DNA of 64,000 nt from Bradymonadales bacterium. GTDB lineage: Bacteria; Myxococcota_A; Bradymonadia; UBA4248. The stretch lies in assembly GCA_041656175.1 (NCBI GenBank), contig JBBAEA010000002.1, forward strand, positions 3,697 to 67,696, given 5' to 3'. Under the pieces are notes generated by a model that had not been told where the DNA came from, did not search any database, and was given only the letters and a program-made list of their open reading frames with translations. Of the stretch, positions 4,003 to 64,000 are shown piece by piece (position 1 is the stretch's first letter; each line of letters begins with the position of its first letter). The translations under genes were made by a program, and so were the position numbers.

Positions 4003-4058
4003 GATATAAGCTAAATGCCGTTTTATAGTAAAATCGCTTTGCGCAGTGTTCTAGAGTT

Positions 4059-4210
4059 AGGGGGGTAGCGCAAGATCACCCTCATGATCGGTGCCTGAGC
4101 GTATTTTATGCATTGGATGCGCGATATGAGCGCATACAATGCATAAAATCTAACGCGAAGCCACCGATCATGAGGGAAGCTTGCGCGTAGGGGGGATATC
4201 CCCCCACAAA
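4059..4210 (-). repeat. Family-1 structured element, copy 1b (inverted orientation)
   Basis: GGGGGGTAGCGCAAGATCACC...CTTGCGCGTAGGGGGGATATCCCCCCAC. About 34-bp imperfect terminal inverted repeats. Confidence 0.8.
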
Positions 4211-12337: not shown

Positions 12338-12490
12338 TTTGGTGGGGGGCACACTGCCCCCCTACGCGCAAGCTTCCCGCAGCATGCGCCTGCAAGCGCA
12401 AAATTTTGTGCATTGTTTCGCCTATTAGGCGAACCAACGCACAAAATGCGCTTTGCGGCCCCTGCTTTGGGCGATCTTGCGCTACCCCCC
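12338..12490 (+). repeat. Family-1 structured element, copy 1c
   Basis: GTGGGGGGCACACTGCCCCCCTACGCGCAAGCTTCC ... GGGCGATCTTGCGCTACCCCCC. Internal palindrome GCGCAAAATTTTGTGC...GCACAAAATGCGC. Confidence 0.8.
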
Positions 12491-12534
12491 ACTGCTTTGT
12501 TGTTCATTTTCTACAACACTGCTAGCAGCCACAT

Positions 12535-15113: not shown

Positions 15114-15187
15114 TACGCCCAGCAGGATTCGAACCTGCGACCCACGGCTTAGAAGGCCGTTGCTCTGTCCAACTGAGCTATGGGCGC
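15114..15187 (-). tRNA. tRNA-Arg (anticodon TCT)
   Basis: Reverse complement folds as GCGCCCA..AGCTCAGTTGGACAGAGC..ACGGC-CTTCTAA-GCCGT..GGTTCGAATCC..TGGGCGT with a discriminator A. Confidence 0.85.
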
Positions 15188-15193
15188 ATGTGA

Positions 15194-15267
15194 TCGGGGC
15201 GATAGGATTCGAACCTACGGCTTCCTGCTCCCAAAGCAGGCGCGCTACCAGACTGCGCCACGCCCCG
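15194..15267 (-). tRNA. tRNA-Pro (anticodon TGG)
   Basis: Reverse complement reads CGGGGCG..GCGCAGTCTGGTAGCGC..CCTGC-TTTGGGA-GCAGG..GGTTCGAATCC..CGCCCCG-A. Confidence 0.85.
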
Positions 15268-15332: not shown

Positions 15333-15569
15333 GAGACCTTTGCACGGCTAGAAATTGTGAATTTAATTTTACAAATCCGATACAGTTTTAAACAAAATGA
15401 GACATTTTGTAGAGAAATATACGCTGAAAATGCTAATAAAATAAGGCAGGATGACGATACAATGACATTTTATTCGAAAAGCGCTTAAAAGAGTGTTTTC
15501 TTTGGGGAAGGGGGGAAACATCTTTTCTTTGGCACAAAGAAAAGGGTTTCCCCCCGTGCAAAGCTCTCT
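15333..15569 (+). repeat. Family-3 TIR element (MITE-like), copy 3a
   Basis: Left end GAGACCTTTGCACGG, right end CCGTGCAAAGCTCTC (inverted). Internal GGGGGGAAAC...GTTTCCCCCC hairpin. Confidence 0.75.
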
Positions 15570-19421: not shown

Positions 19422-20806
19422 CTACAGATCCGTGATCCGTCCTAAAAATATCAGCGCCTTGGATTTGGTGTCGACAATGGCAAAGAGGAAGGGTCTATCG
19501 ACAATAAATTTGATGATTTCGCGAGCTTTTTCAATATCGCTCTTAGCGGTTCGCGGTTTATTGAGCACAACGGCGGTGGCCGCCGCCGCTTCGGCGCCAG
19601 CTTCATCAATTTCGACAAAGGCTTTATGAAAGATGTTACTGATGTAGAGCTCTTTTTTTCCAGTCATGCCGCTAAAAATCGGCGGCAGCATCCGAGAATG
19701 CCAATAGTGCGCCAAGTGTCTCAAGCATTCCTTTGCCATCAACCTTCAATTCTTGGCGAAACTTTGGCAAAGCCAGTTTCACGAAGCGCATTTGCTTCCT
19801 ATTGAGCATCATGCGGAAGTCTTCAGCCTTTAGCTCATCTTCGAGGTTTGCGAGTGCATAGCCCTCATTCGGTAGAACAAGCAACATGGACAGTGGAGAA
19901 TTCTTGTAGTAAAGGGTAAGTGCCTTGTAGTTCCTCCCAATAAAGACTTCCATGTTGTCGAGCCTGTGCATGGTCGGAACCTTTTTTTTGTTGCGCAGAC
20001 CTTTGAAGCTCTCGTTGCGGGTCTCTGACTTCTTAAACGGTATCTCCCACGGTGCTTTGAGGTAGATCGCGTTGACCAAAACCATGCGTGTGTATTCATC
20101 AATACTTCCGCTAGGCAAGAGACCTTGGATTTTGTTACTCGTCTTTTCGGCCACCCAACGATTGATCTTTTGGCGACTAGGCTCTGGGGCAGCTTCGAAA
20201 TCAAGGGGTTCAATGGCGATGCGGTAGTTTGCTTTGAGTCCCTCCATGAATTCAGGCAAAAAGGAGTAGCGTTTGGCGGGATAAATCTTATTGGCAATGC
20301 GCAGCAGAACCCCCTTAGCGGGTGCATCAAAGATACTTTTTTCAATCTGGAGACTAAGCGCATCCCTGTTGGCGCTATCCCGCTCAAAACCCATGGTTGT
20401 TAAGCAGTTCTGCGCGTGTCTCTCCCCGAGCTCCCGTAATCGTCATGCCCATGGCACGCTCAAAGGAATAGGGCGAGAAGACGACATTTTTCCCTGCGGG
20501 AAAAGTCTTAAGCGCTTGCCAAGCAAAGCGATTATTGGCATCAACCCACTCATCGATAGAGCCATCAAGCAAATGAGCTTCAGCCGAAGGCTCCTCAACA
20601 GCCTGCTGAGCTACGTCGTCTTTGTCTTTTTCCTCTACTTCTTCTTTTACTTCGTCTTTGGCTGCTCCCTGTGCAGAATCAATGGAATTATTGCCGGTTG
20701 CAGGCTGTTCTGCCTTGGGTTGGCAGGCAAAAAACCATAGAGAACACAAAAGGGATAAGCACAAAATGAAATAGTATCGCTGCATATTCACTCCTAAAGC
20801 TAGCAC
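19422..20806 (-). pseudogene. Serpin (serine protease inhibitor) lipoprotein gene split into three overlapping frames by two frameshifts
   Basis: ORFs 20384..20806, 19672..20394 and 19422..19742 together give a full serpin. There is a signal/lipobox N-terminus, the hinge EIDEAGAEAAAATAV and the C-terminus FLFAIVD...LFLGRITDL. Frame breaks lie at a T4 run (~20390) and a T5 run (~19693). Confidence 0.6.
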
Positions 20807-20928
20807 ACAAAACCGTCGATTAATGATCGCCTATTGATTGCGTTGTAGTCCAGTAGTAACGCCTTAGCCAAATTGTCGATTGGGATGGCGCATTTAGCGA
20901 CGTGTTTTGCACTTATGGCTTCCAGCTT

Positions 20929-21076
20929 TGGGGGTAGCGCGGGATCGCTGAGCAAAAGACGCTACAAGCGCACAAAATGCGATGGATGCGCGATTAGCAA
21001 ATACATCGCATTTTGTATTGCGCTTGTTGTCGAATTTTGCGAAGAAGCCCGCGCGTAGGGGGCTGCGCCCCCACAA
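20929..21076 (-). repeat. Family-1 structured element, copy 1d (inverted)
   Basis: GGGGGTAGCGCGGGATCGCTGAGC...CGCGCGTAGGGGGCTGCGCCCCCAC. Confidence 0.8.
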
Positions 21077-25877: not shown

Positions 25878-26031
25878 TTGTGGGGGGCTAAAGCCCCCCT
25901 ACGCGCGGGCTTCTTCGCAAAATTCGACAATTCGCGCATCATTTTGTGCAACGTTTCGACTATTCGTCGAACCATTGCACAAAATGCGCTCATTGCGCCT
26001 TTTGCTCAGCGATCCCGCGCTACCCCCCCCC
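25878..26031 (+). repeat. Family-1 structured element, copy 1e
   Basis: TTGTGGGGGGCTAAAGCCCCCCTACGCGCGGGCTTCTTCG ... GATCCCGCGCTACCCCCCCC. Confidence 0.8.
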
Positions 26032-26087: not shown

Positions 26088-26500
26088 CTTTCGTGTTTTT
26101 CGTGGTAAAAATGCTGTTCGTGGCATTCGTGGTTCATAATTTAAAGACACGAAAGGCACGGAAGACCATAACAAATCAAGCTGGTTCTGAAAGAATAAAA
26201 AATCTTCTCGTGTGTTTTCGAGTTTTTCGTGGTTCATAATTTAAAGACACGAAAGGCACGAAAGACCATAACAAATCAAGCTGGTTCTGTAAGAATAAAA
26301 AACTTTTCGTGTGTTTTCGTGTTTTTCGTGGTTCAAAATTTAAAGACACGAAAGGCACGAAAGACCATAACAAATCAAGCTGGTTCTGTAAGAATAAAAA
26401 ACTTTTCGTGTGTTTTCGTGTTTTTCGTGGCAAAAAAATCTTTTCGTGTGTTTTCGTGTTTTTCGTGGTAAAAAAGCTTTCGTGGTAAAAAATCTGTTCG
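26088..26500 (+). repeat. Tandem array A: 3 units of about 100 bp plus 2-3 units of about 38 bp. Each long unit is an imperfect hairpin built from CACGAAA/TTTCGTG heptamers
   Basis: Unit starts at 26126, 26226 and 26325 are near-identical. TTTCGTGG(C/T)AAAAAA recurs. Directly preceded by an orphan family-3 left TIR, GAGACCTTTGCACGGC at 26072-26087. Confidence 0.85.
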
Positions 26501-32442: not shown

Positions 32443-32596
32443 TTGTGGGCGGGGGAAGTGTCCCCCCTCGCCAAAGCCTCCTCACAAAATACAGCAGCGA
32501 GCGCTTTATAAAATGCGGTGTTTTAGCTATTCGCTAAACCACCGCATTTTATGCGTTCGCTGTGCCTTTTCTTCGGGGGTCTTTGGCTCCCCCCTC
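32443..32596 (+). repeat. Family-1 structured element, copy 1f (degenerate)
   Basis: TTTTGTGGGCGGGGGAAGTGTCCCCCCTCGCC...GGGGGTCTTTGGCTCCCCCCTC. Internal palindrome AAAATGCGGTG...CACCGCATTTT. Confidence 0.6.
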
Positions 32597-32772
32597 TAAA
32601 TTTTCGGTATGGCCACAACAAGTTTCACCGCGATGGGCGTCTTGCGCAAGTTTGGCAAAGCGCTCTTGCTGAGCACTGGCTATGCTAACATAACAACCGC
32701 GTGATTGCATGTGGATTCTAGGAGTGCGCTTATATGCGCGAAGGACTCAGCAAGGACAGCCGAGTATTCGAA

Positions 32773-34839: not shown

Positions 34840-34968
34840 TTTGAAAGCTGCCCCTTTCTTTATTAACGCCAAAAATTAGACGGGGCGTCGCGGGGTGTCC
34901 CCGCGGAGGGGGTAGTGGCAAACCCGCGCACAGCGCGGGGTTGACACGTAGGGGGAAACTTCCCCCAC
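34840..34968 (+). repeat. Composite fragment: family-4 hairpin (GGGGGCAGCTTTGAAAGCTGCCCC) followed by a miniature family-1-like terminus
   Basis: GGGGGTAGTGGCAAACCCGCGCACAGCGCGGGG...CGTAGGGGGAAACTTCCCCCAC resembles reverse-orientation family-1 ends. Confidence 0.5.
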
Positions 34969-35206
34969 CAAAGAAAAAGACAGCTATATCGAATCAATCA
35001 GCGTATGCCCAGGGCTTGGATGCCGCCATTTTTTAGGGCTATCATGCGCAGTATGGCTAGGCACGGGCTTGCATATTTTTGGCGGATGCTGTTGTTGAGT
35101 GACGCAATAGTTGAAAGAACGATAAATTTCATGATTTGGCATCTTTTATTCTTGTAATTTGCTGCTACTATAAAGCGTGGGGGTGGAAGAATTTGGTAGA
35201 GAGCAA

Positions 35207-38824: not shown

Positions 38825-39221
38825 CTTTCGTGTCTTTAAATTTTTAACCACGAAAGCCACGAAAACACACGAAAAGTTTTTTATTCTTAGATGTCCAGCT
38901 TGATATGTAATAATCTTTCGTGCCTTTTGTGTCTTTAAATTTTTAACCACGAAAGCCACGAAAACACACGAAAAGTTTTTTATTCTTAGATGTCCAGCTT
39001 GATATGTAATAATCTTTCGTGTATTTCGTGGCAAAAAAAAAGCTTTCGAGCCTTTCGTGTATTTCGTGGCAAAAAAAAGCTTTCGAGCCTTTCGTGTATT
39101 TCGTGGTAAAAAAGCTTTCGAGCCTTTTGTGTATTTCGTGGCAAAAAAAGCTTTCGCGCCTTTCGTGTATTTCGTGGTAAAAAAGCTTTCGAGCCTTTTG
39201 TGTATTTCGTGGCAAAAAAAG
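38825..39221 (-). repeat. Tandem array B: 2 units of about 100 bp plus 6 units of about 37 bp. Reverse-complement, diverged relative of array A
   Basis: Units at 38835 and 38934 are near-identical. Then six copies of CGTGTATTTCGTGG(C/T)AAAAAAAGCTTTCGAGCCTTT. About 85% identical to the array-A unit on the opposite strand. Confidence 0.85.
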
Positions 39222-42635: not shown

Positions 42636-42781
42636 TTGTGGGGGAGCGCCCCCTACGCGCGGGCTTCCTCGTAAATATCACAATTCGCGCCTTATTTTGT
42701 GCGCTGTATCGGCTATTCGCCAACCCAGCGCACAAAATGCGCTCATGGTGCTATTTCCTCGGCGATCCCGCGCTACCCCCC
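42636..42781 (+). repeat. Family-1 structured element, copy 1g
   Basis: TTTGTGGGGGAGCGCCCCCTACGCGCGGGCTTCCTCG...GGCGATCCCGCGCTACCCCCC. Followed by TTAAGGAAACTCTGATATATG and an inverted family-4 terminal fragment at 42803-42835. Confidence 0.8.
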
Positions 42782-42902
42782 TGCGCCCTTAAGGAAACTC
42801 TGATATATGGGGGCTACCGCCCAAAACCCCGCTTCGTTTTGTGGGGCGCTGCTAAGGCTATCGCCCTTAGAACCCTTTTTTTGTGTAGCGTCTTGAATTT
42901 CT

Positions 42903-49854: not shown

Positions 49855-49883
49855 GGTGCTACTTTAGTTTATGCGAATAAATT

Positions 49884-50036
49884 GAGGGGGAGCGCAAGAT
49901 CACCCAAAAAAGTCGCCTATTGCCGCACGCTGTGCGAAGGCCGAGCGTATAGCGAGGACTTTGCACGGCGTAAAGCGGCAATTGGCGAATTTTGAGGGAA
50001 GCTTGCGCGCGGGGGAGTAATCCCCCGCCTTCCCCA
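49884..50036 (-). repeat. Family-1 structured element, copy 1h (inverted)
   Basis: GAGGGGGAGCGCAAGATCACC...GAGGGAAGCTTGCGCGCGGGGGAGTAATCCCCCGCC. Confidence 0.8.
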
Positions 50037-51206: not shown

Positions 51207-52745
51207 TTAAAAGAACCTAATCAGGGGGAAGATACCTATTGCCTCTAAGGTGAAAACAATAATATAGAGAATGACAATACCAACGCCGACTATAATGAAT
51301 AGGAATTTGGGATCGGAATTTGCTTTTTTGAGCAAGGCTTTTGCGTCTTTATTGGAGGAACTGGTACTTTCGGCGAGCTCGGCGCCAAGGGAATCAGGCT
51401 CGTTAGTGGCGCTTTGCTTGATTTTTGCGCTGTTTGCAAGAACGCTCGCGGGGGTATCAATACTGGTAATAAGGAGCAAGTCCTCGTAGATTTCAGCCGA
51501 TGTTGCGTAGCGCTCTTGGGGTAATTTGGCTGCTGCCTTTCGCAGTAGTGCTGCTAAGGCTGTATTGTTCCATGACTTGGGTAGTTCCAGCTCATTGTAG
51601 GACTGCTTGTAGGCGATATCAAAGAGGCTAGTGCCTTCAAAGGCGGGTTTTCCGAGAAGCATTTCGTAAAAGATGAGCGCGAAAGCGTAAACGTCGACGT
51701 TTGGGCTGAGCACTTCGTTTCGGAGTTGTTCAGGTGCCATGTATTGCGGAGAGCCGTAGACTTTGTCGGTGCTCATGGTGATGTCATGGGCGGTGAATGC
51801 GCTTTCAGCGCTCATACATTTTGAGAGGCCAAAGTCGAGTATTGTTACGAGGTCTTCGTATCCCTCTTTGGAGCTGAGGATAATGTTGGCGGGTTTAAGA
51901 TCACGGTGAACAATGTCGCACTTGTGTGCTTCGCGTAGTCCCTTGAGAATTTGCAGAGCGATTTTGCGCGCTGTTAGGAACGGTATACGCCCTTGCTCAA
52001 GTCGCTTTTCCAGAGTTTCGCCATCGAGCAGCTGCATTGTCATCCAAAGTGCGCCATCACTGCGTTTACCAAAGTGGTAGAGCCGCACAATGTTGGGGTG
52101 TTCAAGTCGTGAAACCAGATCGACTTCGCGCTCAAAGCGTTTTTGTATAGAGTCGACCTCGTTCTCGGCTTCAGGGAGTATCATTTTGAGCGCTTCGTCG
52201 CGGCCAAGATTGAGGTTTTTAACTTTAAATACCGCACCAAAGCCGCCTTTTCCCAGCATTGACAAAATGCGGTAGTGCTCAAAGTTATCGCCAAAGGTGG
52301 GAAGCTGATAGTCACGATCTTCCCAGCCCGATGAATTTAGGAGCTGGATTGTCATCTCCGCGCCACTTTGCTTTGGCGCGTGTTTAGGCGCGCCATCAAG
52401 TTTAATGGTCATCTCCGCGCTATTTTGCTTTGGCGCGTGTTTAGGTGCGCCATCAAGTTGAATGGTCATCTCCCCGCTATTTTGCTTTGGCGCGTGTTTA
52501 GGCGCACCATCAAGTTTAATGGTCATCTCCCCGCTACTTTGCTTTGGCGCGTGTTTAGGCGCACCATCAAGTTTAATGGTCATCTCCCCGCTACTTTGCT
52601 TGGGCACATAGTCATGTACAAGATCCTGCTCCGTTGTTGTATCATCAGCATGAGCTTCTGTGTTGTGGGAGCTAACAACAGCATCATGAGTCTCAATGGT
52701 ATGGGGGCCGCTATTTATTTCACTTTGTTCATAATCGTTATGCAT
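51207..52745 (-). CDS. Ser/Thr protein kinase (Hanks type) with N-terminal 20-aa tandem repeats and a C-terminal TM anchor
   Basis: 512 aa. GKGGFGAVFKVK. HRDLKPANIIL. DFGLSK. Five copies of APKHAPKQ(S/N)SGEMTI(K/Q)LDG. Confidence 0.8.
   Translation of the reverse strand: MHNDYEQSEINSGPHTIETHDAVVSSHNTEAHADDTTTEQDLVHDYVPKQSSGEMTIKLDGAPKHAPKQSSGEMTIKLDGAPKHAPKQNSGEMTIQLDGAPKHAPKQNSAEMTIKLDGAPKHAPKQSGAEMTIQLLNSSGWEDRDYQLPTFGDNFEHYRILSMLGKGGFGAVFKVKNLNLGRDEALKMILPEAENEVDSIQKRFEREVDLVSRLEHPNIVRLYHFGKRSDGALWMTMQLLDGETLEKRLEQGRIPFLTARKIALQILKGLREAHKCDIVHRDLKPANIILSSKEGYEDLVTILDFGLSKCMSAESAFTAHDITMSTDKVYGSPQYMAPEQLRNEVLSPNVDVYAFALIFYEMLLGKPAFEGTSLFDIAYKQSYNELELPKSWNNTALAALLRKAAAKLPQERYATSAEIYEDLLLITSIDTPASVLANSAKIKQSATNEPDSLGAELAESTSSSNKDAKALLKKANSDPKFLFIIVGVGIVILYIIVFTLEAIGIFPLIRFF
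52345..52610 (-). repeat. 60-bp in-frame tandem repeat (about 4.5 units) within the kinase gene
   Basis: gctttggcgcgtgtttaggcgcaccatcaagtttaatggtcatctccccgctactttgct recurs. Confidence 0.8.
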
Positions 52746-52965: not shown

Positions 52966-53062
52966 AAAAATACTTTTCTTAGCAAGTTTGATGCGGGTTC
53001 CAGTTTCAAAGAACAAAATACTTGTCTTAGCAAGTTTGATGCGGGTTCCAGTTTCAAAGAAC
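52966..53062 (+). repeat. 51-bp tandem duplication (2 copies) abutting the left end of MITE 3c
   Basis: CTTAGCAAGTTTGATGCGGGTTCCAGTTTCAAAGAAC occurs twice. Confidence 0.7.
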
Positions 53063-53388
53063 GAGACCTTTGCACGGCTAGAAATAACGAATTTAATTTT
53101 ACAAATTCGATACAGCCTTAAACAAAATGAGACATTTTGTAGAGAGATATAAGCTAAAATGCTAATAAAATAAGGCAAGGCGAAGGTAAAATGACGTTTT
53201 ATTCGAAAAGCGCTTAAAAGAGTGCTTTCTTTTTAGTGCCACAGCCGTCCAGGCTGTGGCCGCTTCGCGCGCGGCCTCAGCCGCGACCAATCGCTGACAT
53301 CCATGTCGCGATTGAAGGGGAGGGGGGTACGGGGGGAACCTTTTTTCTTTTGCAAAAAGAAAAAAGGTTCCCCCCGCGCAAAGCTCTC
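53063..53388 (+). repeat. Family-3 TIR element, copy 3c, with a 100-bp internal insertion
   Basis: GAGACCTTTGCACGGCTAGAAATAACGAATTTAATTTTACAAAT......GGAACCTTTTTTCTTTTGCAAAAAGAAAAAAGGTTCC..GCGCAAAGCTCTC. Extra GC-rich hairpin GCCACAGCCGTCCAGGCTGTGGC. Confidence 0.75.
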
Positions 53389-54694: not shown

Positions 54695-55075
54695 CTACTC
54701 TGTCGACTTCCACAAACCGTGCAAGTTGCAATAAGCATACGCCGCTACCAACTCTTCGTCCACAAGCGCGAACTCAACAATCGGCTGCTCGCCGGCGACT
54801 AAATTCTTGCGATGCCCGCCCTTTGAAGTCTGTATATAAACCCATTCGATCAAGTGCTCTGGAATCATTGGGTGCAAAATACTGCCCACTTCAACGCGGA
54901 TCTTCCCATCTACTCTTTTGACGACAGGGATGTGTTTTTCGTTGCTTGCATCAACAGTATTCTCGGCTAAGACTTCCATGTTTTCGCCACAGCATACCAG
55001 CGGTACGCCAGCATTGTTGATTAGGCCGACTAAGTTTCCACAGTGTTTACAGAGGCAAAAGGTCATTTTTGTCAT
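54695..55075 (-). CDS. dfx: Desulfoferrodoxin (superoxide reductase, 2Fe class)
   Basis: N-terminal desulforedoxin CxxC...CC (FCLCKHCGNLVGL...VCCGENM). C-terminal SOR domain (HIPVV, HPMIPEHLIEWVY, YCNLHGLWKS). Confidence 0.8.
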   Translation of the reverse strand: MTKMTFCLCKHCGNLVGLINNAGVPLVCCGENMEVLAENTVDASNEKHIPVVKRVDGKIRVEVGSILHPMIPEHLIEWVYIQTSKGGHRKNLVAGEQPIVEFALVDEELVAAYAYCNLHGLWKSTE

Positions 55076-55274: not shown

Positions 55275-55423
55275 TGTGGGGGGCTATTGCCCCCCTACGC
55301 GCAAGCTGCCCGCAAAATTCGGCAAGAGCCGCTGTATTTAATGCGCCGTTCACGCTAATCGCGTGACCAGCGCATTAAATGCGTCTCTAGCCGAATTTTG
55401 CGGGTGATCTTGCGCTACCCCCC
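55275..55423 (+). repeat. Family-1 structured element, copy 1i
   Basis: TTTTTGTGGGGGGCTATTGCCCCCCTACGCGCAAGCTGCC...GGGTGATCTTGCGCTACCCCCC. Internal palindrome TTTAATGCGC...GCGCATTAAAT. Confidence 0.8.
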
Positions 55424-55450
55424 AGACCGCAACTAAACCAATAACAGCAA

Positions 55451-58400
55451 TCAACTCTCGATTACACGCGCATGACCACAACTCACCGAAATGACATCCA
55501 ACAAATGCTCCAAAATACGGCGAGGATTCCCACCCTCCATCGCCCACAAATTGGGATCGTTAACAATACCCGTCTTTTTATCCGTGCGAACCGAAAAACG
55601 ATCCAAAACCCACTCAATCGCCGATTTCCCGTTCACAATAAAATCATGCGCCACATCGGGGATACCGCTGATGGTAATAAACCCGTTATAAATAATGATC
55701 GACTTATCAAGCGCCTTCCCCTTCTTTGCGAAAACCATCTTCTCCACCCGATACGAAACCCCCTCAAACTCACCTTCAAGCTTTATCCCGAACTCGCGGT
55801 AATCTGGGACTTTCCGCATCGTGTGCAAATCGATTAACGCCGCACCGCGTGCCGATAAACGCGAAAATTCCGAATAATCTGCGGGCAAATCAATCCGCGG
55901 CAAACTCTTCTTCAGCTCCACCTTATACCGCTTTTGATACCCCAGATCCCACAATTGCCCATAAACAAAATCAAAGATAGCTCGCTTCCCCACCTTCACC
56001 CCATAAAGCTTCTCCGCCTCAGCCACAATCCAGTCACTTACCCCGTCACGCCGCCTGCAAACCGAATTTTCTGCAAATAACCCCCCCGAATTTTCTTCAT
56101 ACCAATACAAGGGGAAACATTGTGCTCCCGCTTCCATCAAATTTAAATCAGGAACTTTATCAACGACAAATGCCGAAAAATCCTTTTTTGCCCCCAAACC
56201 AGTCACACAAATCAATAAATTCTCGCTATCCGCCTCTGGAAAAAACGCAGGCTGGCGATATACCCTTTCATTATATTTAGATGTAAAATATAGATATTGA
56301 GGTACAAAAGGGCGATAAATACTTTCATAAACCCTATTATCTTCAAAAACATCAGCTTCTTTAGCAGTTTTAGCTTTTCTTTCTAAACGCTTCATCAAAC
56401 TGGTTGTCCAACTGATTTTTGTTAAATCATAATCCACAAAATCTTGGATTTTAATAGTGATTTTACCCTTTTTTGCCTCTCTATAACGAGAGACTTCATT
56501 ATTATAAAAATCGATCATTCCTAACAATCGTTCCTTCAAAGATTCTTGACTGAAATCATAAACCCAAGCATCGCGATTTGTTTTAACTCCACAACTATGC
56601 GCTGCGAAAAAACTTCCCTTGCCATCGCCGAATTTTTTGGCGTTTTCGAGCGGAATCATCGTCTCGAAAGTTTCATCGCGCTGGTTGATCCAATCGTGAT
56701 ATTGATTGGGTTGTAGTGCCTCACCCCAATCAATACCTTGAACGCTTTGTGCCGTTTTGATGCGTTCTAATTTATCTTCGCGACTCAAATAATCGCCGAT
56801 ATCGTGATAATATATTTGTGCTTTGCCGTCATAGTTGGGATCTTTTACCAATAAACAAATCGCTATGGGCGTACGAGAGCCTGAGTCAAAAACATTACCA
56901 GCCTCCTTTTTACGTAATACACCACTTGTATAAGCATTTCCTCTTAAATTATAACAATAAACCGCACTGAATTCCTCTTCTAAGCACGCCCTAAAACCGT
57001 CAAAAGCCAGATTATCGATCCAACTCCCATTGCTAATAAAAGCCACAATCCCCCCATTTTCCTCATCCAAGCGATCACTCGCCCAACGAAAAGCCTTCAC
57101 ATAACTATCGTATAAGGAGTTTTTATTTGTAGCCGTCGATTTTTTTGCGTAAGTTTCATCGATCCGCGCTTCTAATTGTTTATAACTCGCGTTTTGCGCG
57201 TTGTCGTTGGCGCTTTTTTGCCCGATTGAATAGGGTGGATTCCCTAAAATCACCATCAGCGGCTGCTTTTGCTGCTCAACAACGCGCTGCGAATTATCCG
57301 GAAAAAACGCGGTAAAAACGTTATTTCTTTCGCCCAACTCAAAACTATCCGTCAAACAGATGCCGTCAAACGAAAATGTCGAATTTTCCACGGTCTCCCC
57401 CTCATCTATGCCGCGCGCTTTCATCTGCCAGCGCAAAGAATTTTCTATATTCACCGCCGCAATATAATACGCCAACAATAATATTTCGTTTGCGTGCAGC
57501 TCCCCGTGATATTTACGCAATAGATCCTCATCGTTAATCAATCCGCATTCCAACAAGCGCGCCATAAAAGTGCCCGTCCCCGTAAACGGATCGAGTACGT
57601 GAACCCCCTCATCGCTCAAATGACGCCCAAAATACTTTTGCAACAAAAAATCCGTCGAATGCAGAATAAAATCCGCAATTTCAATCGGTGTGTACACGAT
57701 CCCGAGCTTTTCCACCGTCAGCGGAAACGCCAACTTAAAAAACGTTTCATACAATTCGGTAATAATCTTTTGCCGTCCCTCGGAACTTTGCACCCCGCGT
57801 ACGCGATCAGCAACCGATGTATAAAATCCCTGCATCGCTCGCGTTCCCTCTGCAAAATCCGAAACCTTTTGCATCTCATCGATGATCCTTCGCATCGAAC
57901 GCGAAATAGGGTTATTATCTTCAAAGCTTCCGTCATCAAAAAGTGCGTTAAAGATCGGCCCCGTGATCAGGTGCTGCGCCAACATCTCCACAACTTCCTC
58001 TTTCGAAAGCGCGTTGTTGATATTCGCACGCAATTCTTGGTGGAATACGCTAAACCTTTTACGAATTCCCGCATTTTCCTCGACCAATGCAGCGATTTGC
58101 GTGATATTATTTTGTACAATCGTCCCCACATCTCCCGCCCAGTCTTCCCAATAACGCCGTGAACCCACGCGCTGCACAAGTTTGGCGTAGATCAAACCCT
58201 GTGTTTCCTGGATAAAATTCAGATCTAACTGAATACCATCAACAAGAATTCTACTATCCTCAAAATCTGCATCACTACGGTCACTCGCAGCACCCGACTC
58301 ACCGATAACAGCCCCAGTTTTTCCAACTTTCTGCTGTTTCAACGCCAGCTGCTGAACCTTGATTTCAAACCGCTCATCGTGCGCACGAAGGGCGCGAAGT

Positions 58401-60478
58401 ACGGACCAAACGGTTTTATAATCTTCGCTGTTATTAAGGGCTTCCTCCGCGTTGGCTCCAGCTTTAAGTACAACGGGAATAATAATGTAGCCGTACTTCT
58501 TAGCCTCGGCTTTGCGCATCACGCGCCCCACCGATTGCACGATATCGATCTGCGAATTCTTCGGGCTCAAAAACAACACTGCATCTAAGCTGGGAACATC
58601 GACTCCCTCGCTCAAACAGCGAACATTGCTCAATATCCGACACTCTGCCCCGTCACGTGGAACGCTTTTGAGCCAGTGTAAGCTCTCATCGCGCTGCATC
58701 GCCGACATCTTCCCGTCCACGTGCGCACAATTGGGATATACCGACATCGAACGCATCTCATTTTCCCACAAGAACACTTCGTTTGCATCACTTTCTGCAC
58801 CATCAAGAGCATCAGTATCGATATCTGCCGTATTTTCCGACATCAAGCAGCCGATCATATTAAGCTCGCTCTCAATACGCTTCGAGTTTGCAATGCTATG
58901 CGTAAAGGCAACCGCTGTACGCATCGGCTCGGGATCAACCTTCTCCAACTCATCGCTATCATCACGCGAAATCTTATTAAGCGCCGATACGCAGGCAACC
59001 AGCTTTGCCGCGCTGGTAACTTCCAAACGATCCGAACTCTCTTTCTCATCAAGAATCCGCCGTATCTGCACCGGTAAATCATCAGTAATCGTAAAGACCA
59101 GCACCCGATAGTCGCTTAAAAGCCCCAACTGCACCGCTTTTCCGAAACTAAGGCTATAAAAAACATCGCCATACAACGCCACATCATCCATCGAACACAG
59201 AACGACATCCTCGCCGCGCGCCCGATCCTTGGCATCCTCCCCGTAAAGCCGCGGCGTCGCCGTCATATACAAACGCCGTTTCGCCAAAATTTGCGTGTTG
59301 TAATGCACCTTTACAAACGACGAAATGTCATCAGACCCATCGTGAACACCAGTAGTTCGATGCGCCTCATCCGAAATCACCAAATCAAACGACAAATCCG
59401 CTCCCGACTCCGCACTCGCCAAAGCTTGCCCCTCGATCACCGCATCTATCGATTGATACGTACTAAATACAACGTTAAGACGCTTCAGCGCATGAGAACC
59501 GCTATTCTCCTCGCCGAATAGGCAGCCGCTCGCCCTAAACTCCGAGCCTTCATTCTTGGCCGTATCCCGCGCTTCTAAACATTCTAAAAACCACTTCGCA
59601 ATATCCGCAGGATTCGTATTGGCGGGTTCTGCCAAATCAACGACACTCGTAAAAGTATCATCGTCGACATTAGACCGCTTTTTACTACTCACTTTGGAGT
59701 CCGAGCAAACACAAAGCGGGCGCATACTCGTATTTTTATGATCAAGCCAACTCCCCAGGCTTTGCCCCAGTAGCGCAATCGATGGAACCAAAAACAAGAC
59801 AAAATCCCCGTCTTCACACAGATCCTCGGCTATCCGAAGCGACGTAAATGTCTTACCCGTACCGCACGCCATAATCATACGACCGCGATCATTACTCGAA
59901 TAATGCGACCGCGCCGCCTCCAACGCTTCCAGCTGATGCGCTCGCAAGGTAAACGGCTCATATTGCGCTTGAGAACCGACAAACCCCGCCACGAGCTTTT
60001 CCCAATCTACTGGGCTCTCCCTCAAGGTCGATAAGCTGATCCGCGTTACCGGCGGCTGATGTTGCCGAATCATTGCTTCGGCATTTGCGCCCCATTTGTC
60101 GGTTGTCGATATCCATAAAGCCCGAGTAAAAACGCAGCTATTGCCCGCTTCATCTAAAAACGTCTTAGCCGTCATCGATAAAAAACTGTCGATATTCGCC
60201 TTGTTTACCGAGTGCGCCGCAGCGTAACATTTACATTGCACGGCCCAATATTCCCCATCCTTCGTTTTCGCCACCAAATCAATACCCAAATCCTTCCCGC
60301 CCCCCGCAAAACTCTCGCGAAGCGGAAATTCCCCCCACAAATACACCTCCTCCAACTGATCGGCATAACGCGGTTCCGTTAACAGATATCGCTGACTTAA
60401 GCGCTCAAAACTATCACCGATCCGACGTTTTCCGCCTGCTGTCCGAAAAATATCCAGTACTTCATCTATTGTTAACAT
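55451..60478 (-). CDS. Single-polypeptide restriction-modification enzyme: Mrr-like nuclease, SF2 helicase-type ATPase, N6-adenine methyltransferase, C-terminal target-recognition region (Type ISP-like)
   Basis: 1675 aa. N-terminal GGKDLGIDLVAKTKDGEYWAVQCKCY is a PD-(D/E)xK Mrr core. Walker A MACGTGKT. DEAH box VISDEAHRTTG. YMTATP and QSVGRVMRK helicase motifs. MTase motif I VLDPFTGTGTF and motif IV ILGNPPY. Confidence 0.8.
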   Translation of the reverse strand: MLTIDEVLDIFRTAGGKRRIGDSFERLSQRYLLTEPRYADQLEEVYLWGEFPLRESFAGGGKDLGIDLVAKTKDGEYWAVQCKCYAAAHSVNKANIDSFLSMTAKTFLDEAGNSCVFTRALWISTTDKWGANAEAMIRQHQPPVTRISLSTLRESPVDWEKLVAGFVGSQAQYEPFTLRAHQLEALEAARSHYSSNDRGRMIMACGTGKTFTSLRIAEDLCEDGDFVLFLVPSIALLGQSLGSWLDHKNTSMRPLCVCSDSKVSSKKRSNVDDDTFTSVVDLAEPANTNPADIAKWFLECLEARDTAKNEGSEFRASGCLFGEENSGSHALKRLNVVFSTYQSIDAVIEGQALASAESGADLSFDLVISDEAHRTTGVHDGSDDISSFVKVHYNTQILAKRRLYMTATPRLYGEDAKDRARGEDVVLCSMDDVALYGDVFYSLSFGKAVQLGLLSDYRVLVFTITDDLPVQIRRILDEKESSDRLEVTSAAKLVACVSALNKISRDDSDELEKVDPEPMRTAVAFTHSIANSKRIESELNMIGCLMSENTADIDTDALDGAESDANEVFLWENEMRSMSVYPNCAHVDGKMSAMQRDESLHWLKSVPRDGAECRILSNVRCLSEGVDVPSLDAVLFLSPKNSQIDIVQSVGRVMRKAEAKKYGYIIIPVVLKAGANAEEALNNSEDYKTVWSVLRALRAHDERFEIKVQQLALKQQKVGKTGAVIGESGAASDRSDADFEDSRILVDGIQLDLNFIQETQGLIYAKLVQRVGSRRYWEDWAGDVGTIVQNNITQIAALVEENAGIRKRFSVFHQELRANINNALSKEEVVEMLAQHLITGPIFNALFDDGSFEDNNPISRSMRRIIDEMQKVSDFAEGTRAMQGFYTSVADRVRGVQSSEGRQKIITELYETFFKLAFPLTVEKLGIVYTPIEIADFILHSTDFLLQKYFGRHLSDEGVHVLDPFTGTGTFMARLLECGLINDEDLLRKYHGELHANEILLLAYYIAAVNIENSLRWQMKARGIDEGETVENSTFSFDGICLTDSFELGERNNVFTAFFPDNSQRVVEQQKQPLMVILGNPPYSIGQKSANDNAQNASYKQLEARIDETYAKKSTATNKNSLYDSYVKAFRWASDRLDEENGGIVAFISNGSWIDNLAFDGFRACLEEEFSAVYCYNLRGNAYTSGVLRKKEAGNVFDSGSRTPIAICLLVKDPNYDGKAQIYYHDIGDYLSREDKLERIKTAQSVQGIDWGEALQPNQYHDWINQRDETFETMIPLENAKKFGDGKGSFFAAHSCGVKTNRDAWVYDFSQESLKERLLGMIDFYNNEVSRYREAKKGKITIKIQDFVDYDLTKISWTTSLMKRLERKAKTAKEADVFEDNRVYESIYRPFVPQYLYFTSKYNERVYRQPAFFPEADSENLLICVTGLGAKKDFSAFVVDKVPDLNLMEAGAQCFPLYWYEENSGGLFAENSVCRRRDGVSDWIVAEAEKLYGVKVGKRAIFDFVYGQLWDLGYQKRYKVELKKSLPRIDLPADYSEFSRLSARGAALIDLHTMRKVPDYREFGIKLEGEFEGVSYRVEKMVFAKKGKALDKSIIIYNGFITISGIPDVAHDFIVNGKSAIEWVLDRFSVRTDKKTGIVNDPNLWAMEGGNPRRILEHLLDVISVSCGHARVIES

Positions 60479-60655
60479 CTCGCTTGCCCTTTCTTATCCA
60501 AAACATGCCCATCGACCCGTTCGACATCAATCGGATACCATCAAACTAGCGTACTCTCAATATTGGCTAACTGATAAAATGAAGCAAGAAAGCTCAATAG
60601 CTCAGAGCATCCTTAGGGAAACTCTGAAATATTCGATATTTATGACTTTTGCTCT

Positions 60656-60809
60656 TGTGGGGGGCTATTGCCCCCCTACGCGCGGGCTTCCTCGTAAAAT
60701 GCGACAATTCGCATAAATAAAATGCGATGTATTCGCTCAAACCGCTCATTCATCGCATTTTATGTGCTCATTGCGCATTTTCCTCGGCGATCCCGCGCTA
60801 CCCCCCCCC
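60656..60809 (+). repeat. Family-1 structured element, copy 1j
   Basis: CTTGTGGGGGGCTATTGCCCCCCTACGCGCGGGCTTCCTCG...GGCGATCCCGCGCTACCCCCCCCC. About 90% identical to copy 1a. Confidence 0.8.
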
Positions 60810-60965
60810 AGCGTTTCACGCGAAAGAAAATGTGCACAGTCTCTCCCTATTCTCTTCATTCCTATAAGATTGACGCCCGTTGCTAAGCTCTTTATACTTT
60901 TGTTACATCTTTTCGCGTTGCCAGATCGCGGCGCAATGTTTTTTGTTCAACCTAGGAGTTTGTCT

Positions 60966-62519
60966 ATGATTCTTCGAAGCACCGTCATTGAAAATCGCTA
61001 TTTTGATTCAGTTTTTCTCATGAGCTTAGCCGCGGAGCTTAAGAAGATGGGCGGCGTACTGGACGCCTCCGCGCTTATGGGAACAGATAGTAACAAGGAT
61101 TTACTCAAGGATAGTGGGCTTTTGGATGATATCGCGAAATCCGCGGCTCCCAATGACCTTATTTTAAGCGTCAAAATCGAGAATGAATCGCAGTATCCCT
61201 CCATAAAAGAGCGCATCGACAAATTTTTGGCAGGCGAGGACGATGCTGCGCCGAAGAAGAGGTCGGGGCGCGGGGAGCAAGTGGCGCATACTATTGAGGA
61301 GGGTTTAGATATTTTGGAGGATGCAAATCTACTCCATATCTCGATCCCTGGGCCTTTTGTGTATAACGAGGCGTTGCGCGCCATCGATAAGGGGCTAAAT
61401 CTCTTTATCTTCTCCGATAACGTTTCGATCGAAGAGGAGCGCATCATTAAAGAAGAGGCTAAAAAACGGGATCTCCTCGTCATGGGTCCCGACTGCGGAA
61501 CCGCCATCATCAACGGCGTTGGCCTTGGTTTTGCAAACGTCGTCCCCCGCGGCCCACTCGCCGTTATCGGCGCGTCGGGAACGGGGATACAGGAAATAAC
61601 ATGCTTGGCCGCGCAACGCGGCATTGGAATCGCTCAGGCCATCGGTTTGGGGGGACGCGACCTTCGCAAAGAAATTGGCGCCATATCGATGTTGCAAGCC
61701 CTCGATATGATCGAAACGCAAAGCGAAGTTAAGGTGATTTGTTTGGTCTCAAAACCTGCACACCCCGATAGTATGGCCAAAATCATGGCTCGCGCTGAAC
61801 GCATGAATCTGCCGATCATAGCCTGTTTCCTCGGTGCGAGCACAGAAATCGCGCATCCCAAAAACGTTCACATCGCCACTCGCCTTGATGAAGCTGTCGA
61901 TATGGTGGAAGCCGTACTACGCGGTGAAACCCCAAAGAGAAGCGATAAGGCCATCATTAGCGAAACATGCTTGGCTAAGCTCCAAGAGCGAAAGGCGAAA
62001 CTGCCCGCTACGCGCAAAAACATTAAGGGGCTGTTTAGCGGCGGTACTCTTTGCGACGAAGCGCTGTATATGGCTAAGTCCTTGAAACTCGAAAAGATCC
62101 AAAGCAACCTTGTCGCAGATAGCGATCCCATGGCTATTATTAATGATGGGCAAAACGCAAACCTATTCCTCGACATGGGGGACGACAAGTTTACGCGCGG
62201 ACGCCCACACCCCATGATCGAGTTTGGCTATCGCATGGAGCGAGTACGCGCTGAAGCCGCAAGAGCAGAGACCGCCGTTATTTTACTCGATCTCGTTATA
62301 GGCTATGGTTCGCACAAAGATCCGCTTGCAGCACTGCTGCCCGTTATCGAGGAGTTCAACAAGGACAGCGATCCCGTCTTCGTACTCTCGATCACGGGGA
62401 CAGCGCAAGATCCGCAAAACCTTGAGCAGATTAAAACGCAAGTGAAAGCCGCTGGCGCGTGGATTGCAAAGAGTAACGCGCAGGCCGCTGCGATGGCCAT
62501 CGAGTTTGTGAAGCGCTAG
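60966..62519 (+). CDS. fdrA: FdrA-family protein (succinyl-CoA-synthetase-alpha-like / acyl-CoA synthetase FdrA)
   Basis: MILRSTVIENRYFDSVFLMSLAAELKK resembles the FdrA N-terminus. Internal CoA-binding and ligase-CoA domains: GIQEITCLAAQRGIGIAQAIGLGGRD. About 517 aa from this start. Confidence 0.75.
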   Translation: MILRSTVIENRYFDSVFLMSLAAELKKMGGVLDASALMGTDSNKDLLKDSGLLDDIAKSAAPNDLILSVKIENESQYPSIKERIDKFLAGEDDAAPKKRSGRGEQVAHTIEEGLDILEDANLLHISIPGPFVYNEALRAIDKGLNLFIFSDNVSIEEERIIKEEAKKRDLLVMGPDCGTAIINGVGLGFANVVPRGPLAVIGASGTGIQEITCLAAQRGIGIAQAIGLGGRDLRKEIGAISMLQALDMIETQSEVKVICLVSKPAHPDSMAKIMARAERMNLPIIACFLGASTEIAHPKNVHIATRLDEAVDMVEAVLRGETPKRSDKAIISETCLAKLQERKAKLPATRKNIKGLFSGGTLCDEALYMAKSLKLEKIQSNLVADSDPMAIINDGQNANLFLDMGDDKFTRGRPHPMIEFGYRMERVRAEAARAETAVILLDLVIGYGSHKDPLAALLPVIEEFNKDSDPVFVLSITGTAQDPQNLEQIKTQVKAAGAWIAKSNAQAAAMAIEFVKR

Positions 62520-62524
62520 GCACT

Positions 62525-62676
62525 GAGGGGGAGCGCAAGATCACCTGAGGAATTCGCTTAGTTACGCACACTGTGCATAAGTCGAGCGTATAGCGAGAAT
62601 TTTGCACAGTGTATCGCGGAACTTAGCGAATAATGAGGGAAGCTTGCGCGGGGGGGAGACTTCCCCCCTCCCCAAA
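62525..62676 (-). repeat. Family-1 structured element, copy 1k (inverted)
   Basis: GAGGGGGAGCGCAAGATCACC...GAGGGAAGCTTGCGCGGGGGGGAGACTTCCCCCCTCC. Confidence 0.8.
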
Positions 62677-62732
62677 AAATAGCCATAATATTTGGAACAA
62701 TGTTTTTAACCATTTTGAATGTGAGCATAAAT

Positions 62733-64000
62733 ATGACGAATCCCTTACTTGGCAATGATAAATTATCTGTTATTAACATGGGTCTGCCCTCTTTCGCCGA
62801 ATCGCTCGCCGAACAAGGCGCCGCCGTCACACAGCTACAATGGAAGCCCGCAGCCGACGCAAAACCCGAGCTTCTCAGCGTACTCGCGCGCATAAACCGC
62901 GCTGGCAAAGAGCTGTCTGCGCTTCAAGAAAAAATCGAAGCCGCCAACAAGCAAGCCGTGGAGCGCTTGAACGAAGCGCAAGCGATTTGGACCGACGTGC
63001 AGCCCGCGCGTGACGTCGTTAAAGGTTTTCACGACAATTTGATTCTGCACGCAGGCCCGCCCATCGCCTGGGAAAAGATGTGTGGCCCCATGCAAGGTGC
63101 CATAGCGGGCGCCCTTATTTATGAAGGGAAAGCCAAAACTTTCGAGGAAGCATGCGTACTTGCCGAGAGCGGTAAGATTGAGTTCGCACCATGCCATCAC
63201 TACCAAATGGTGGGACCCATGGCTGGCGTGGTATCGCCTTCGATGTGGGTTTCGGTGGTACATAACCCCACACACGGGAATTACGCCTACTGCACACTCA
63301 ACGAAGGATTGGGCAAAGTTTTGCGCTTCGGCGCCTACGATGAAGAAGTTATGACGCGGCTCAAGTGGATGGAAAAAGTGCTGGCGCCCGCCTTGTCAAA
63401 GGCCGTAAAACACGCGGGCGGCATCAATATTAAAGCGCTCATCGCGCAGGCGCTGCAGATGGGCGATGAATTGCACAACCGCAATAACGCGGGAACGTCG
63501 CTCTTGCTGCGAGAGCTGCACACGCATCTGTGCAAATGCGGGCTAAGCCTTGAAGTCGTCGAAGAAGTCTACGCTTTTATCAACGCTAATAACCACTTCT
63601 TCCTTAATTTCTCGATGCCCGCGGGTAAAGTTGCAGCCGATGCCATTAAGGGCATTGAGTACTCCACCATTATGTGCGCAATGTGCCGAAACGGCGTCGA
63701 AATTGGCATACGTGTTGCAGGCACAGGGGATCGCTGGTACACCACGCAATCTGGTATTCCGAAGGGTTTGTATTTTGGCGGCTACTCCGAAGCCGACGCC
63801 AACCGCGATCTCGGGGATTCCACGATCTGCGAAACTGCGGGTTTTGGCGGTTTTGCCATGGCTACTGCACCGGCCATCGTCAAGTTCACGGGGGGAGACG
63901 CCGAAATGGCCTTGCGCATCACGAACGAAATGTACGACATTTGCTACGCCCGACACCGCGACTATCAAATGCCTATACTCGATTTTGCAGGCACACCGCT
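62733..64000 (+). CDS. DUF1116-family protein (YlbE-like, usual FdrA partner); 3' end beyond window
   Basis: ATG at 62733 with an open frame to the window end: MTNPLLGNDKLSVINMGLPSFAESLAEQGAAV... Not in the ORF track because no stop lies within the window. Confidence 0.65.
   Translation, partial: MTNPLLGNDKLSVINMGLPSFAESLAEQGAAVTQLQWKPAADAKPELLSVLARINRAGKELSALQEKIEAANKQAVERLNEAQAIWTDVQPARDVVKGFHDNLILHAGPPIAWEKMCGPMQGAIAGALIYEGKAKTFEEACVLAESGKIEFAPCHHYQMVGPMAGVVSPSMWVSVVHNPTHGNYAYCTLNEGLGKVLRFGAYDEEVMTRLKWMEKVLAPALSKAVKHAGGINIKALIAQALQMGDELHNRNNAGTSLLLRELHTHLCKCGLSLEVVEEVYAFINANNHFFLNFSMPAGKVAADAIKGIEYSTIMCAMCRNGVEIGIRVAGTGDRWYTTQSGIPKGLYFGGYSEADANRDLGDSTICETAGFGGFAMATAPAIVKFTGGDAEMALRITNEMYDICYARHRDYQMPILDFAGTP

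Follow-up and report, generated by a model that had tools for sequence, protein, structure and literature searches.

A predicted chromosomal single-protein Type ISP restriction-modification enzyme with a strain-variable specificity module in a lineage labelled Bradymonadales

The best-described relatives of the enzyme reported here are LlaGI and LlaBIII, which are encoded on plasmids of Lactococcus lactis (PDB 5FFJ and 4XQK) and in which nuclease, motor, coupler, methyltransferase and target-recognition domains follow one another in this order. Close relatives within the Type ISP family are nearly identical in their N-terminal part and diverge in the C-terminal part that comprises methyltransferase and recognition, as published for LlaGI versus LlaBIII and among 552 family members (PMC3553950; PMC4872093). 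Cleavage triggered by collision after translocation is common to Type ISP and Type I enzymes (PMC3553963). However, classical Type I systems, whose HsdR subunit contains a related SF2 translocase, consist of three separate subunits (HsdR/M/S), extrude loops bidirectionally and recognize bipartite sites. The single-chain enzymes of the DrdV/MmeI type (Type IIL/IIG) have the logic of single-strand modification in common with Type ISP (10.1101/2021.01.06.425610), but they have neither the helicase-like motor nor the coupler, and their cleavage position is at a fixed distance from the site.

In the 64-kb window, i.e., the whole stretch of DNA analysed, a Type ISP restriction-modification gene is located at 55451..60478 on the minus strand. 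Its open reading frame is intact, starts with ATG and codes for 1675 amino acids, which align collinearly and over the full length with LlaBIII (4xqk) and LlaGI (5ffj), each at E = 0. The N-terminal Mrr-type PD-(D/E)xK nuclease domain (aa 34-163; 59990..60379, minus strand) matches Pfam Mrr_cat_2 at 1.1e-40; its motifs, read from the translation, are KDLGIDLVA (62-70) and AVQCK (79-83), and residues D63, D67, Q81 and K83, counted in the alignment, correspond to D74, D78, Q92 and K94 of LlaBIII. The SF2 helicase-like translocase (aa 176-656; 58511..59953, minus strand; Pfam ResIII 5.5e-19, Helicase_C 1.1e-9) contains the motor motifs GTGKT (206-210), DEAH (370-373), TATP (406-409) and QSVGRVMRK (648-656), all intact, and is followed by a Type ISP coupler domain (aa 776-900; 57779..58153, minus strand), which covers 125 of the 126 positions of the ISP_coupler profile (PF22240, 2.1e-39). 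In the gamma-class N6-adenine methyltransferase (aa ~904-1289; 56612..57769, minus strand), motif I, FTGTG (within 962-971), precedes motif IV, NPPY (1080-1083). The generic Pfam models Eco57I and N6_Mtase match this domain only weakly, with scores under the cut-offs set by Pfam, so that its assignment is based on the collinear alignment with the LlaGI methyltransferase and on these motifs. The C-terminal target-recognition domain (aa 1290-1657; 55508..56611, minus strand) matches Type_ISP_C (PF18135) at 3.5e-93 over 340 of 342 profile positions.

One polypeptide thus unites the whole set of sequence features of a Type ISP enzyme, namely Mrr nuclease, SF2 ATPase, coupler, gamma-class methyltransferase and C-terminal target-recognition domain, and judged by these domains and motifs the protein is a putative intact, chromosomally encoded single-protein Type ISP restriction-modification enzyme. 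An earlier sequence-only reading of this DNA had anticipated the three catalytic units, a C-terminal region of target-recognition size and the domain order of LlaGI and LlaBIII; the alignments agree with it on each of these points, and of the profile matches it had proposed as a check, those to nuclease, motor and Type ISP families were obtained and those to the generic methyltransferase families stayed below cut-off. It was also right that no separate methylase or specificity gene (hsdM/hsdS) lies nearby, according to a Pfam scan of the neighbouring genes and public annotations. NCBIfam offers no model for Type ISP; its matches to the protein, among them weak ones to the EcoAI R subunit of Type I, score far below the model cut-offs throughout. 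Amino acids 795-1673 are homologous to the methyltransferase and recognition unit of DrdV (PDB 7LO5; E = 3e-127), although the protein, unlike DrdV, has the full motor. It differs from LlaGI and LlaBIII in being chromosomally rather than plasmid-encoded, and it exceeds them in length by about 100 amino acids, short insertions being located at aa ~293-333 and ~545-575.

By analogy with LlaGI and LlaBIII, to which the protein is homologous over its full length, methyltransferase and target-recognition domain would clamp an asymmetric site of 6-7 bp, and in host DNA one adenine on one strand would be methylated. On unmodified DNA, the SF2 motor would translocate the enzyme downstream from the site at the expense of ATP; only the collision of two enzymes converging from head-to-head sites would lead to a double-strand break, both strands then being nicked by the Mrr nucleases.

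The family as such is common and well studied. More than 8000 database homologues were found at E <= 1e-50, which are routinely labelled "type ISP restriction/modification enzyme", 173 plasmid records carry a homologue, and 552 family sequences had been analysed by 2016 (PMC4872093), so that the earlier description of the enzyme type as rare does not apply. In itself the gene is of modest value: a further chromosomal member of the Type ISP family, from a little-sampled, uncultured lineage labelled Bradymonadales. Outside the species, identity to the next best homologues does not exceed 49%, and these belong to other phyla; the database search found none in the range of 49%-93% identity. When the recognition module alone was used as query, the best database relatives were 42-48% identical, and neither a donor nor a close relative was retrieved. 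Since the module is not more than 48% identical to any database entry, its recognition sequence is probably new.

The gene sits between two housekeeping genes; it is flanked on the left by a desulfoferrodoxin gene (dfx, 54695..55075, minus strand; PF01880) and on the right by fdrA/allF (60966..62519, plus strand), as had been read from the sequence. The true start of fdrA/allF lies 204 nt inside the listed open reading frame, and its product has 517 amino acids in public assemblies. Both flanks are conserved in a sister species, L016, represented by one contig, which retains the order of a 405-aa gene, dfx and allF; identities of the orthologues are 54% for the 405/406-aa gene, 81% for dfx and 74% for allF (P0122). 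In this contig dfx and allF are separated by 204 bp that contain neither the Type ISP gene nor a repeat. Because the sister species lacks the gene within conserved synteny, the gene is accessory in the dfx/allF intergenic region. Within its own species, each of the four assemblies covering the locus contains the gene, and look-ups with the exact Type ISP, desulfoferrodoxin and AllF proteins returned the same arrangement or short contigs only, with no deletion variant among them. Both the gene and the 405aa-dfx-allF order are absent from L017, which is more distantly related. AllF scans of genome and metagenome collections, both without this lineage, yielded relatives of 36-41% identity from other phyla only.

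About 110 nt of the L016 spacer beside allF and one block of 16 nt near dfx align with the two spacers of the window; the alignment of its middle is not significant (p = 0.16 and 0.24), the spacer being too diverged to place the boundaries of an insertion. The joint lack of the gene and of the two repeats that adjoin it in the window would likewise be expected of a repeat-bounded unit. An empty site of the kind proposed earlier, with both repeats fused, was found in part: L016 provides the dfx-allF gap without the gene, but its 204-bp spacer holds no fused repeat.

Variation at the locus was observed between strains. Comparison with strain L009, whose contig ends at about position 56081 of the window, within the target-recognition domain, and covers the right breakpoint only, revealed 4 SNPs and a single indel of 3 nt in the 6.85 kb from 57150 to 64000; identity drops abruptly to 58-87% over 56000-57100. 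At the protein level, the two sequences are 100% identical up to about aa 1150 and then 42-94% identical in 50-aa blocks. The variable segment (55451..57100, minus strand; right breakpoint at about 57050-57150) comprises the C-terminal part of the methyltransferase and the target-recognition domain, and it coincides with a dip in GC content to 0.425. This specificity module has been replaced by recombination between strains that are 99.9% identical in the flanks, and the replacement very likely gives the strains different recognition sequences. A swap of this pattern is already known from the pair LlaGI and LlaBIII. The allele of the window occurs in samples ERZ27247346 and SRR8449813, and the alternative one in JGI 3300060803. 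A tblastn search with the alternative allele for a silent recognition-domain cassette matched nothing but the Type ISP gene itself. The earlier proposal had sought variability in recombination between repeats; the variability actually present, replacement of the specificity module, had been missed. With 4 SNPs in 6.85 kb, the two alleles represent a clean natural module replacement, well suited to mapping recognition loops to targets.

We put a probability of roughly 0.8 on the reading that this putative intact Type ISP enzyme is an accessory gene of the dfx/allF spacer whose specificity module is swapped between strains, and that the repeats next to it settled independently. Most likely, the repeats entered both spacers beside the gene without having carried it in; the order of events would then be the gene first and the repeats later.

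The repeats in question are palindromic intergenic elements of about 150 nt. Copy 1i (55275..55425, plus strand) scores 150.4 bits with the covariance model R1, is located downstream of the Type ISP gene at a distance of 25 nt from its stop codon, and has a DNA fold of -60 kcal/mol (z = -12.6). Copy 1j (60656..60808, plus strand; 150.9 bits; -41.6 kcal/mol, z = -6.95) is situated in the divergent intergenic region shared with allF, 177 nt upstream of the start codon, and recurs in strain L009 (9671-9823, 150.9 bits). The position of both copies near the ends of the gene, in the same orientation, is as noted before. A third copy (62523..62671, minus strand; 99.7 bits) follows the allF stop codon after 4 nt, so that allF is bracketed as well. 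Altogether, the window contains 11 full copies of 147-153 nt, all noncoding, and further copies occur in L009 and L016. The left ends of 1i and 1j have 37 nt in common at 92% identity, with a longest perfect run of 29 nt; the chance expectation of a common left-end motif of 25 nt is 0.00.

In Neisseria, "minimal mobile elements" are sites at which strains exchange one restriction cassette or specificity module for another. By a similar route, the repeats, or simply the conserved genes dfx and allF, might serve as homology anchors by which DNA that has been taken up replaces the resident allele. The replacement of the module between 99.9%-identical strains, with one breakpoint within that part of the gene which is conserved, is consistent with such an exchange, and 1i, 25 nt past the stop codon, marks a place where the other breakpoint could fall. 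However, the L009 contig ends before this distal breakpoint, no alternative cargo was seen at the dfx/allF site, and homology within the gene and in dfx would be sufficient without any role of the repeats. We regard a function of the flanks as anchors as unlikely, albeit as the least unlikely of the alternatives to independent settlement of the repeats beside an accessory gene.

The composition of the gene bears on whether it was acquired at all. Over aa 1-1150, GC content is 0.487 against a background of 0.489, GC3 and codon usage are native-like, and the tetranucleotide distance of the gene amounts to z = 1.0-1.4 only. The native-like N-terminal two thirds imply that the acquisition is old, or that the donor was similar, or that the gene is ancestral and was lost in the sister lineage. 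The last of these options, vertical inheritance followed by deletion from the dfx/allF spacer in the lineage of L016, agrees with the presence of the gene in all four assemblies spanning the locus. On the other hand, the 204-bp spacer of L016 retains no remnant of the gene and no hybrid repeat, L017 lacks gene and gene order alike, homologues between 49% and 93% identity are missing with the nearest ones belonging to other phyla, and the coding-strand GC skew is the highest of 36 genes (the Type ISP gene and 35 background genes; z = 2.15). Ancestry of the gene therefore appears improbable. The comparison of composition proposed by the sequence-only reading thus had a divided outcome, since aa 1-1150 look native and the C-terminal module, with a GC content of 0.425 that departs from the background, and the GC skew (z = 2.2 when rounded) stand out.

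According to the sequence-only reading, the gene looked like cargo delimited by miniature elements (MITEs), which would make 1i, the Type ISP gene and 1j one mobile unit, inserted into the dfx/allF spacer like a composite transposon. The orthologous 204-bp spacer of L016, which lacks the gene and both repeats, and the direct orientation of 1i and 1j with their common left end would fit such a unit. However, random placement of 11 copies in the 41 intergenic regions of the window gives 2.7 bracketed genes, compared with two observed (the Type ISP gene and allF); the probability is 0.97 for at least one bracketed gene and 0.067 for a given gene. The repeat bracket of the Type ISP gene is an effect of density and no more than chance. 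Both allF and, in L009, a SpoU gene are likewise bracketed, in inverted orientation. Over the long hairpin, identity between 1i and 1j is only 58%, and the two belong to different sub-families with an AAG/CTT and a GGG/CCC closing stem, respectively; 1j is most similar to the copy at 2438, 58 kb away (92% identity). No direct repeat indicative of a target-site duplication was found around any of 14 distinct copies or around the 1i-1j pair, no transposase domain was found among 40 scanned open reading frames of the window, and the 1i-ISP-1j unit was found at the same locus of the same species only, not at another locus or in another genome. Joint mobilization of gene and repeats is thus very unlikely. 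Since about a quarter of the intergenic regions hold a repeat, a gene flanked by two of them is not evidence of mobilization, and this negative result should be useful wherever repeats are as dense.

On/off switching through deletion between the direct repeats, also suggested earlier, is extremely improbable, because such a deletion would be irreversible and hence not phase variation, and although 1i and 1j have the 29-nt perfect run at their left ends, the gene is retained in each of the four assemblies spanning the locus, and the short contigs retrieved by the exact-protein look-ups break at the centres of the repeat palindromes, not at deletion junctions.

Compared with the gene beside which they lie, the repeats form the more unusual object. 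Each copy is an imperfect palindrome over its whole length (G6...C6 ends; 94% of cells paired), so that inverted termini exist trivially; the left arm has an extra loop and C6, and a T-rich tract precedes the 5' end. The termini are conserved, in contrast to the interior hairpin, which is free to vary in sequence and in length, from 31 to about 120 nt. Covariation is strong and restricted to Watson-Crick pairs. These properties, i.e., covariation of this kind, conserved termini and a variable interior, are the reason why the family may deserve a study of its own. A search against Rfam detected four tRNAs in the window and no family matching the repeats.

In length (about 150 nt), abundance, strictly intergenic location, occurrence in both orientations and long imperfect palindrome, the family resembles ERIC, REPIN and Correia-type repeats and bacterial MITEs. 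It differs from these in the absence of target-site duplications and of a partner transposase among the 40 open reading frames scanned, in the additional G6-loop-C6 hairpin at one end only, and in the combination of fixed termini with a free interior. As a speculation to which we attach little weight, the repeats may constitute an undescribed palindromic class acting at the DNA level, in which the termini alone are fixed (T-tract, G6-loop-C6 hairpin, TAC ... TAC-C6) around an interior hairpin that stays Watson-Crick paired as it changes in sequence and length, and whose copies might serve as movable anchor points, by homology or structure, favouring the capture of accessory genes and their exchange between alleles, as with this restriction enzyme or its specificity module.

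A role as intrinsic terminators was rejected, as neither of the hairpins 1i and 1j is followed by a U-tract on either strand. The repeat after allF in the window and that in L016 were likewise judged not to be orthologous, since they agree at 54 of 86 positions, a proportion that other copies reach as well. Repeat positions differ between the related species. The copies have no orientation bias with respect to genes: of those in tandem gene pairs, 4 point in the sense and 3 in the antisense direction, another 3 occupy divergent intergenic regions, and the remaining copy is antisense after a gene end.

The gene between the desulfoferrodoxin gene dfx (54695–55075, minus strand) and fdrA/allF, which in public gene calls starts at 60966, not 60762, is a single ORF (55451–60478, minus strand) of 1675 aa with an ATG start. 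Its translation contains all of the motifs listed by the sequence-only reading: KDLGIDLVA (residues 62–70) and AVQCK (79–83) of the nuclease; GTGKT (206–210), DEAH (370–373), TATP (406–409) and QSVGRVMRK (648–656) of the motor; and FTGTG (within 962–971), followed by NPPY (1080–1083), of the methyltransferase. Pfam returned the full Type ISP set, namely Mrr_cat_2 (1e-40), ResIII, Helicase_C, ISP_coupler (2e-39) and Type_ISP_C (3.5e-93), with generic methyltransferase models scoring just under the cut-off. The assignment is borne out by collinear, end-to-end alignments to the solved structures of LlaBIII (4XQK; 1066 bits, E = 0) and LlaGI (5FFJ; 1029 bits, E = 0), whereas DrdV, which lacks a motor, matches across the methyltransferase and recognition part. 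Counted along the alignment, D63, D67, Q81 and K83 correspond to D74, D78, Q92 and K94 of LlaBIII. Judged from its sequence, the protein has every defining feature of the Type ISP family, and the gene, an accessory one set within conserved chromosomal surroundings, is predicted to code for an intact and unremarkable Type ISP enzyme. From homology and the literature on such enzymes, it would methylate adenine on one strand of an asymmetric site, translocate downstream at the expense of ATP, and cut upon collision of two converging enzymes; its specificity is probably new. The family can hardly be called rare, as had been proposed: a database search with the protein retrieved at least 8000 homologues with an E value of 1e-50 or lower, many carrying the annotation “type ISP restriction/modification enzyme”. 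Homologues were also present in 173 plasmid records spanning dozens of genera, at identities of up to about 44%; in 145 of these records the match covered 80% or more of the query. The family analysis by Kulkarni et al. in 2016 already took in 552 members (PMC4872093).

Three publicly available assemblies encode an identical protein: one metagenome assembly from ENA, the NCBI MAG GCA_964449095.1 and one assembly from Logan. The source labels are “Bradymonadales bacterium” for the neighbouring AllF and “Bradymonadia bacterium” for the closest relative of the ISP protein. The other genes of the window are those of an ordinary chromosome (dnaN, pfk, murC, asnA, hsp70, argS, fmt, a sigma-70 gene), and no integrase or transposase domain was found among the 40 ORFs scanned. 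On a sister-species contig, the 405-aa gene, dfx and allF have orthologues (54, 81 and 74% identical, respectively) whose order and orientation match those of the window, and the 204-bp gap between dfx and allF contains neither the ISP gene nor any repeat. In a more distant relative (AllF 58%), miaA lies upstream of allF and the ISP gene is again absent. Outside the species, the best homologues among the matches listed reach 49% identity at most and belong to Flavobacteriia, Electrothrix, Chlorobi and others. A gain of the gene in this lineage is the simpler interpretation. Codons 1–1150 have a GC content of 0.487 and a GC3 of 0.525 (background 0.489 and 0.518), the codon-usage distance is about 1 SD over the mean, and the tetranucleotide distance has a z of 1.0–1.4. 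Only coding-strand GC skew ranks the gene top among the 36 compared, itself included (z = 2.15), and composition is weak evidence of recent transfer. Alignment showed the dfx/allF spacers of the window and the sister species to be too diverged for the insertion boundaries to be placed. The locus lies near dnaA, which is found about 6.5 kb past the right end of the window (1517–2923 on a contig of a near-identical strain); dnaN (8155–9258) is about 60 kb from dnaA, at the opposite end, so that the usual dnaA–dnaN adjacency is absent.

The intergenic repeat flanking the gene, about 150 nt long, palindromic and densely spread over the window, is the more unusual object. A covariance model built on nine copies identified 11 full copies in the window, on the plus strand at 2438–2589, 12341–12492, 25879–26030, 32448–32597, 42637–42783, 55275–55425 (copy 1i) and 60656–60808 (copy 1j), and on the minus strand at 4058–4208, 20927–21075, 49882–50030 and 62523–62671, with further copies in the near-identical strain (266–418, 1350–1504) and the sister species (1856–2009, 4323–4406). 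Each consists of a T-rich tract, a G6-loop-C6 hairpin, an imperfect palindrome of about 120 nt closed by GCGCRRG/CYYGCGC, and a TAC-C6 end; the G6 run can pair with either C6 run, the nearer or the more distant, so that two mutually exclusive folds are possible. Interiors vary strongly among copies, but both ends are conserved, as are a few unpaired motifs (GATC, GCT, CCA). A 65-nt miniature (34905–34969, minus strand) retains the T-tract, a G5-loop-C5 hairpin and the TAC and TACCCCC ends around an interior hairpin of 31 nt, as compared to about 120 nt in full copies, which suggests that function resides in the termini. Folded as single-stranded DNA, 1i has an energy of -60 kcal/mol (z = -12.6), and 1j one of -41.6 kcal/mol (z = -6.95). 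Changes on both sides occur in 31 of 47 pairs, and 94% of cells are paired, values reached by none of 500 shuffles (slid controls, 35–50% paired); one-sided, G-U type cells number five. Since pairing is Watson-Crick only and both orientations are used without bias relative to genes, the data point to a palindrome at the level of DNA, not to an RNA. The repeat has no match in Rfam.

Two repeats in the same orientation do lie beside the ISP gene, 1i at 25 nt from its stop codon and 1j at 177 nt upstream of its start, and the absence of gene and both repeats from the sister locus would fit insertion of all three as one repeat-delimited cargo unit. However, this empty site is equally consistent with insertion of the gene, which would create two new spacers, and later colonisation of both by a repeat that occupies about a quarter of all spacers. 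Random placement of 11 copies over 41 intergenic regions brackets 2.7 genes on average (P of at least one, 0.97), and two are bracketed in the window (ISP, allF), besides a SpoU gene in the near-identical strain. Moreover, identity between 1i and 1j is only 58%, they fall into separate sub-families, and 1j is most similar to the copy at 2438 (92%); no target-site duplication surrounds single copies or the pair, and among the matches listed in the homologue search with the protein, the unit was found at no other locus and in no other species. In the sister species, copies occupy other positions, between dfx and the 406-aa orthologue of the 405-aa gene and also downstream of allF, so repeats come and go independently of the ISP gene. 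The bracket is a density effect, and the “MITE-delimited cargo” is very improbable.

Phase variation by recombination between 1i and 1j fares no better: the only substrate is shared perfect runs of 29 nt at the left and about 12–16 nt at the right ends, the deletion would be irreversible, and all four assemblies covering the locus keep the gene. The ends of short Logan contigs at palindrome centres are assembly effects, not junctions. The real variability at the locus is a swap of the specificity module. The near-identical strain, represented by a contig of JGI 3300060803, has the ISP gene at the same place beside allF, with 1j present, and from 57150 to 64000 differs from the window by four SNPs and one 3-nt indel; leftwards of about 57100, identity falls abruptly to 58–87%. 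That sole indel in 6.85 kb falls in the 3'-terminal poly-C tract of 1j (60800–60808). The proteins are 100% identical (two differences) up to about residue 1150 and then, in 50-aa blocks, 74, 94, 80, 42, 42 and 74%; a GC dip (0.39–0.43) spans the same segment. Placed by offset from the LlaGI alignment and the loop coordinates of PMC4872093, the breakpoint would lie approximately between recognition Loops II and III. Because the replaced piece would carry methyltransferase Loop III and all recognition-domain readers, the two alleles likely differ in recognition sequence. The replacement resembles that between LlaGI and LlaBIII, which are described as more than 95% similar over the first three domains (PMC3553950). 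A divergent specificity module with a conserved remainder has also been described for the family at large (PMC4872093); the natural swap is neat, yet already known for Type ISP enzymes. The alternative module has no silent cassette within the 64-kb window, and a database search with the recognition module found a close relative elsewhere for neither allele.

Further features were observed in the window. A second family (26126–26484 and 38825–39221, in opposite orientations) consists of 99-nt tandem units (3.1 and 2.1 copies) followed by 35–38-nt units rich in TTTCGTG/CACGAAA, and recurs just past the right end of the window (positions 1–394 of contig L001). A 72-nt tandem repeat (15837–16112; 3.8 copies, 89–93% matches) lies within a 692-aa ORF without Pfam match. 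A serpin gene is broken into two ORFs that overlap (19672–20394 and 20384–20806, minus strand) and may be frameshifted or a pseudogene. A Ser/Thr kinase gene has an internal 57-nt tandem repeat (52351–52605; 4.5 copies), where the ENA assembly differs; the kinase is called with 493 aa there and has 512 aa in the window ORF, which may reflect repeat copy number or another start call. A 646-bp spacer separates the kinase gene from the 405-aa gene and harbours a 48-nt tandem duplication (52967–53062) and, at 53063–53232, a copy (90% identity) of the 171-nt sequence 15333–15503 that adjoins a tRNA pair (15114–15267).
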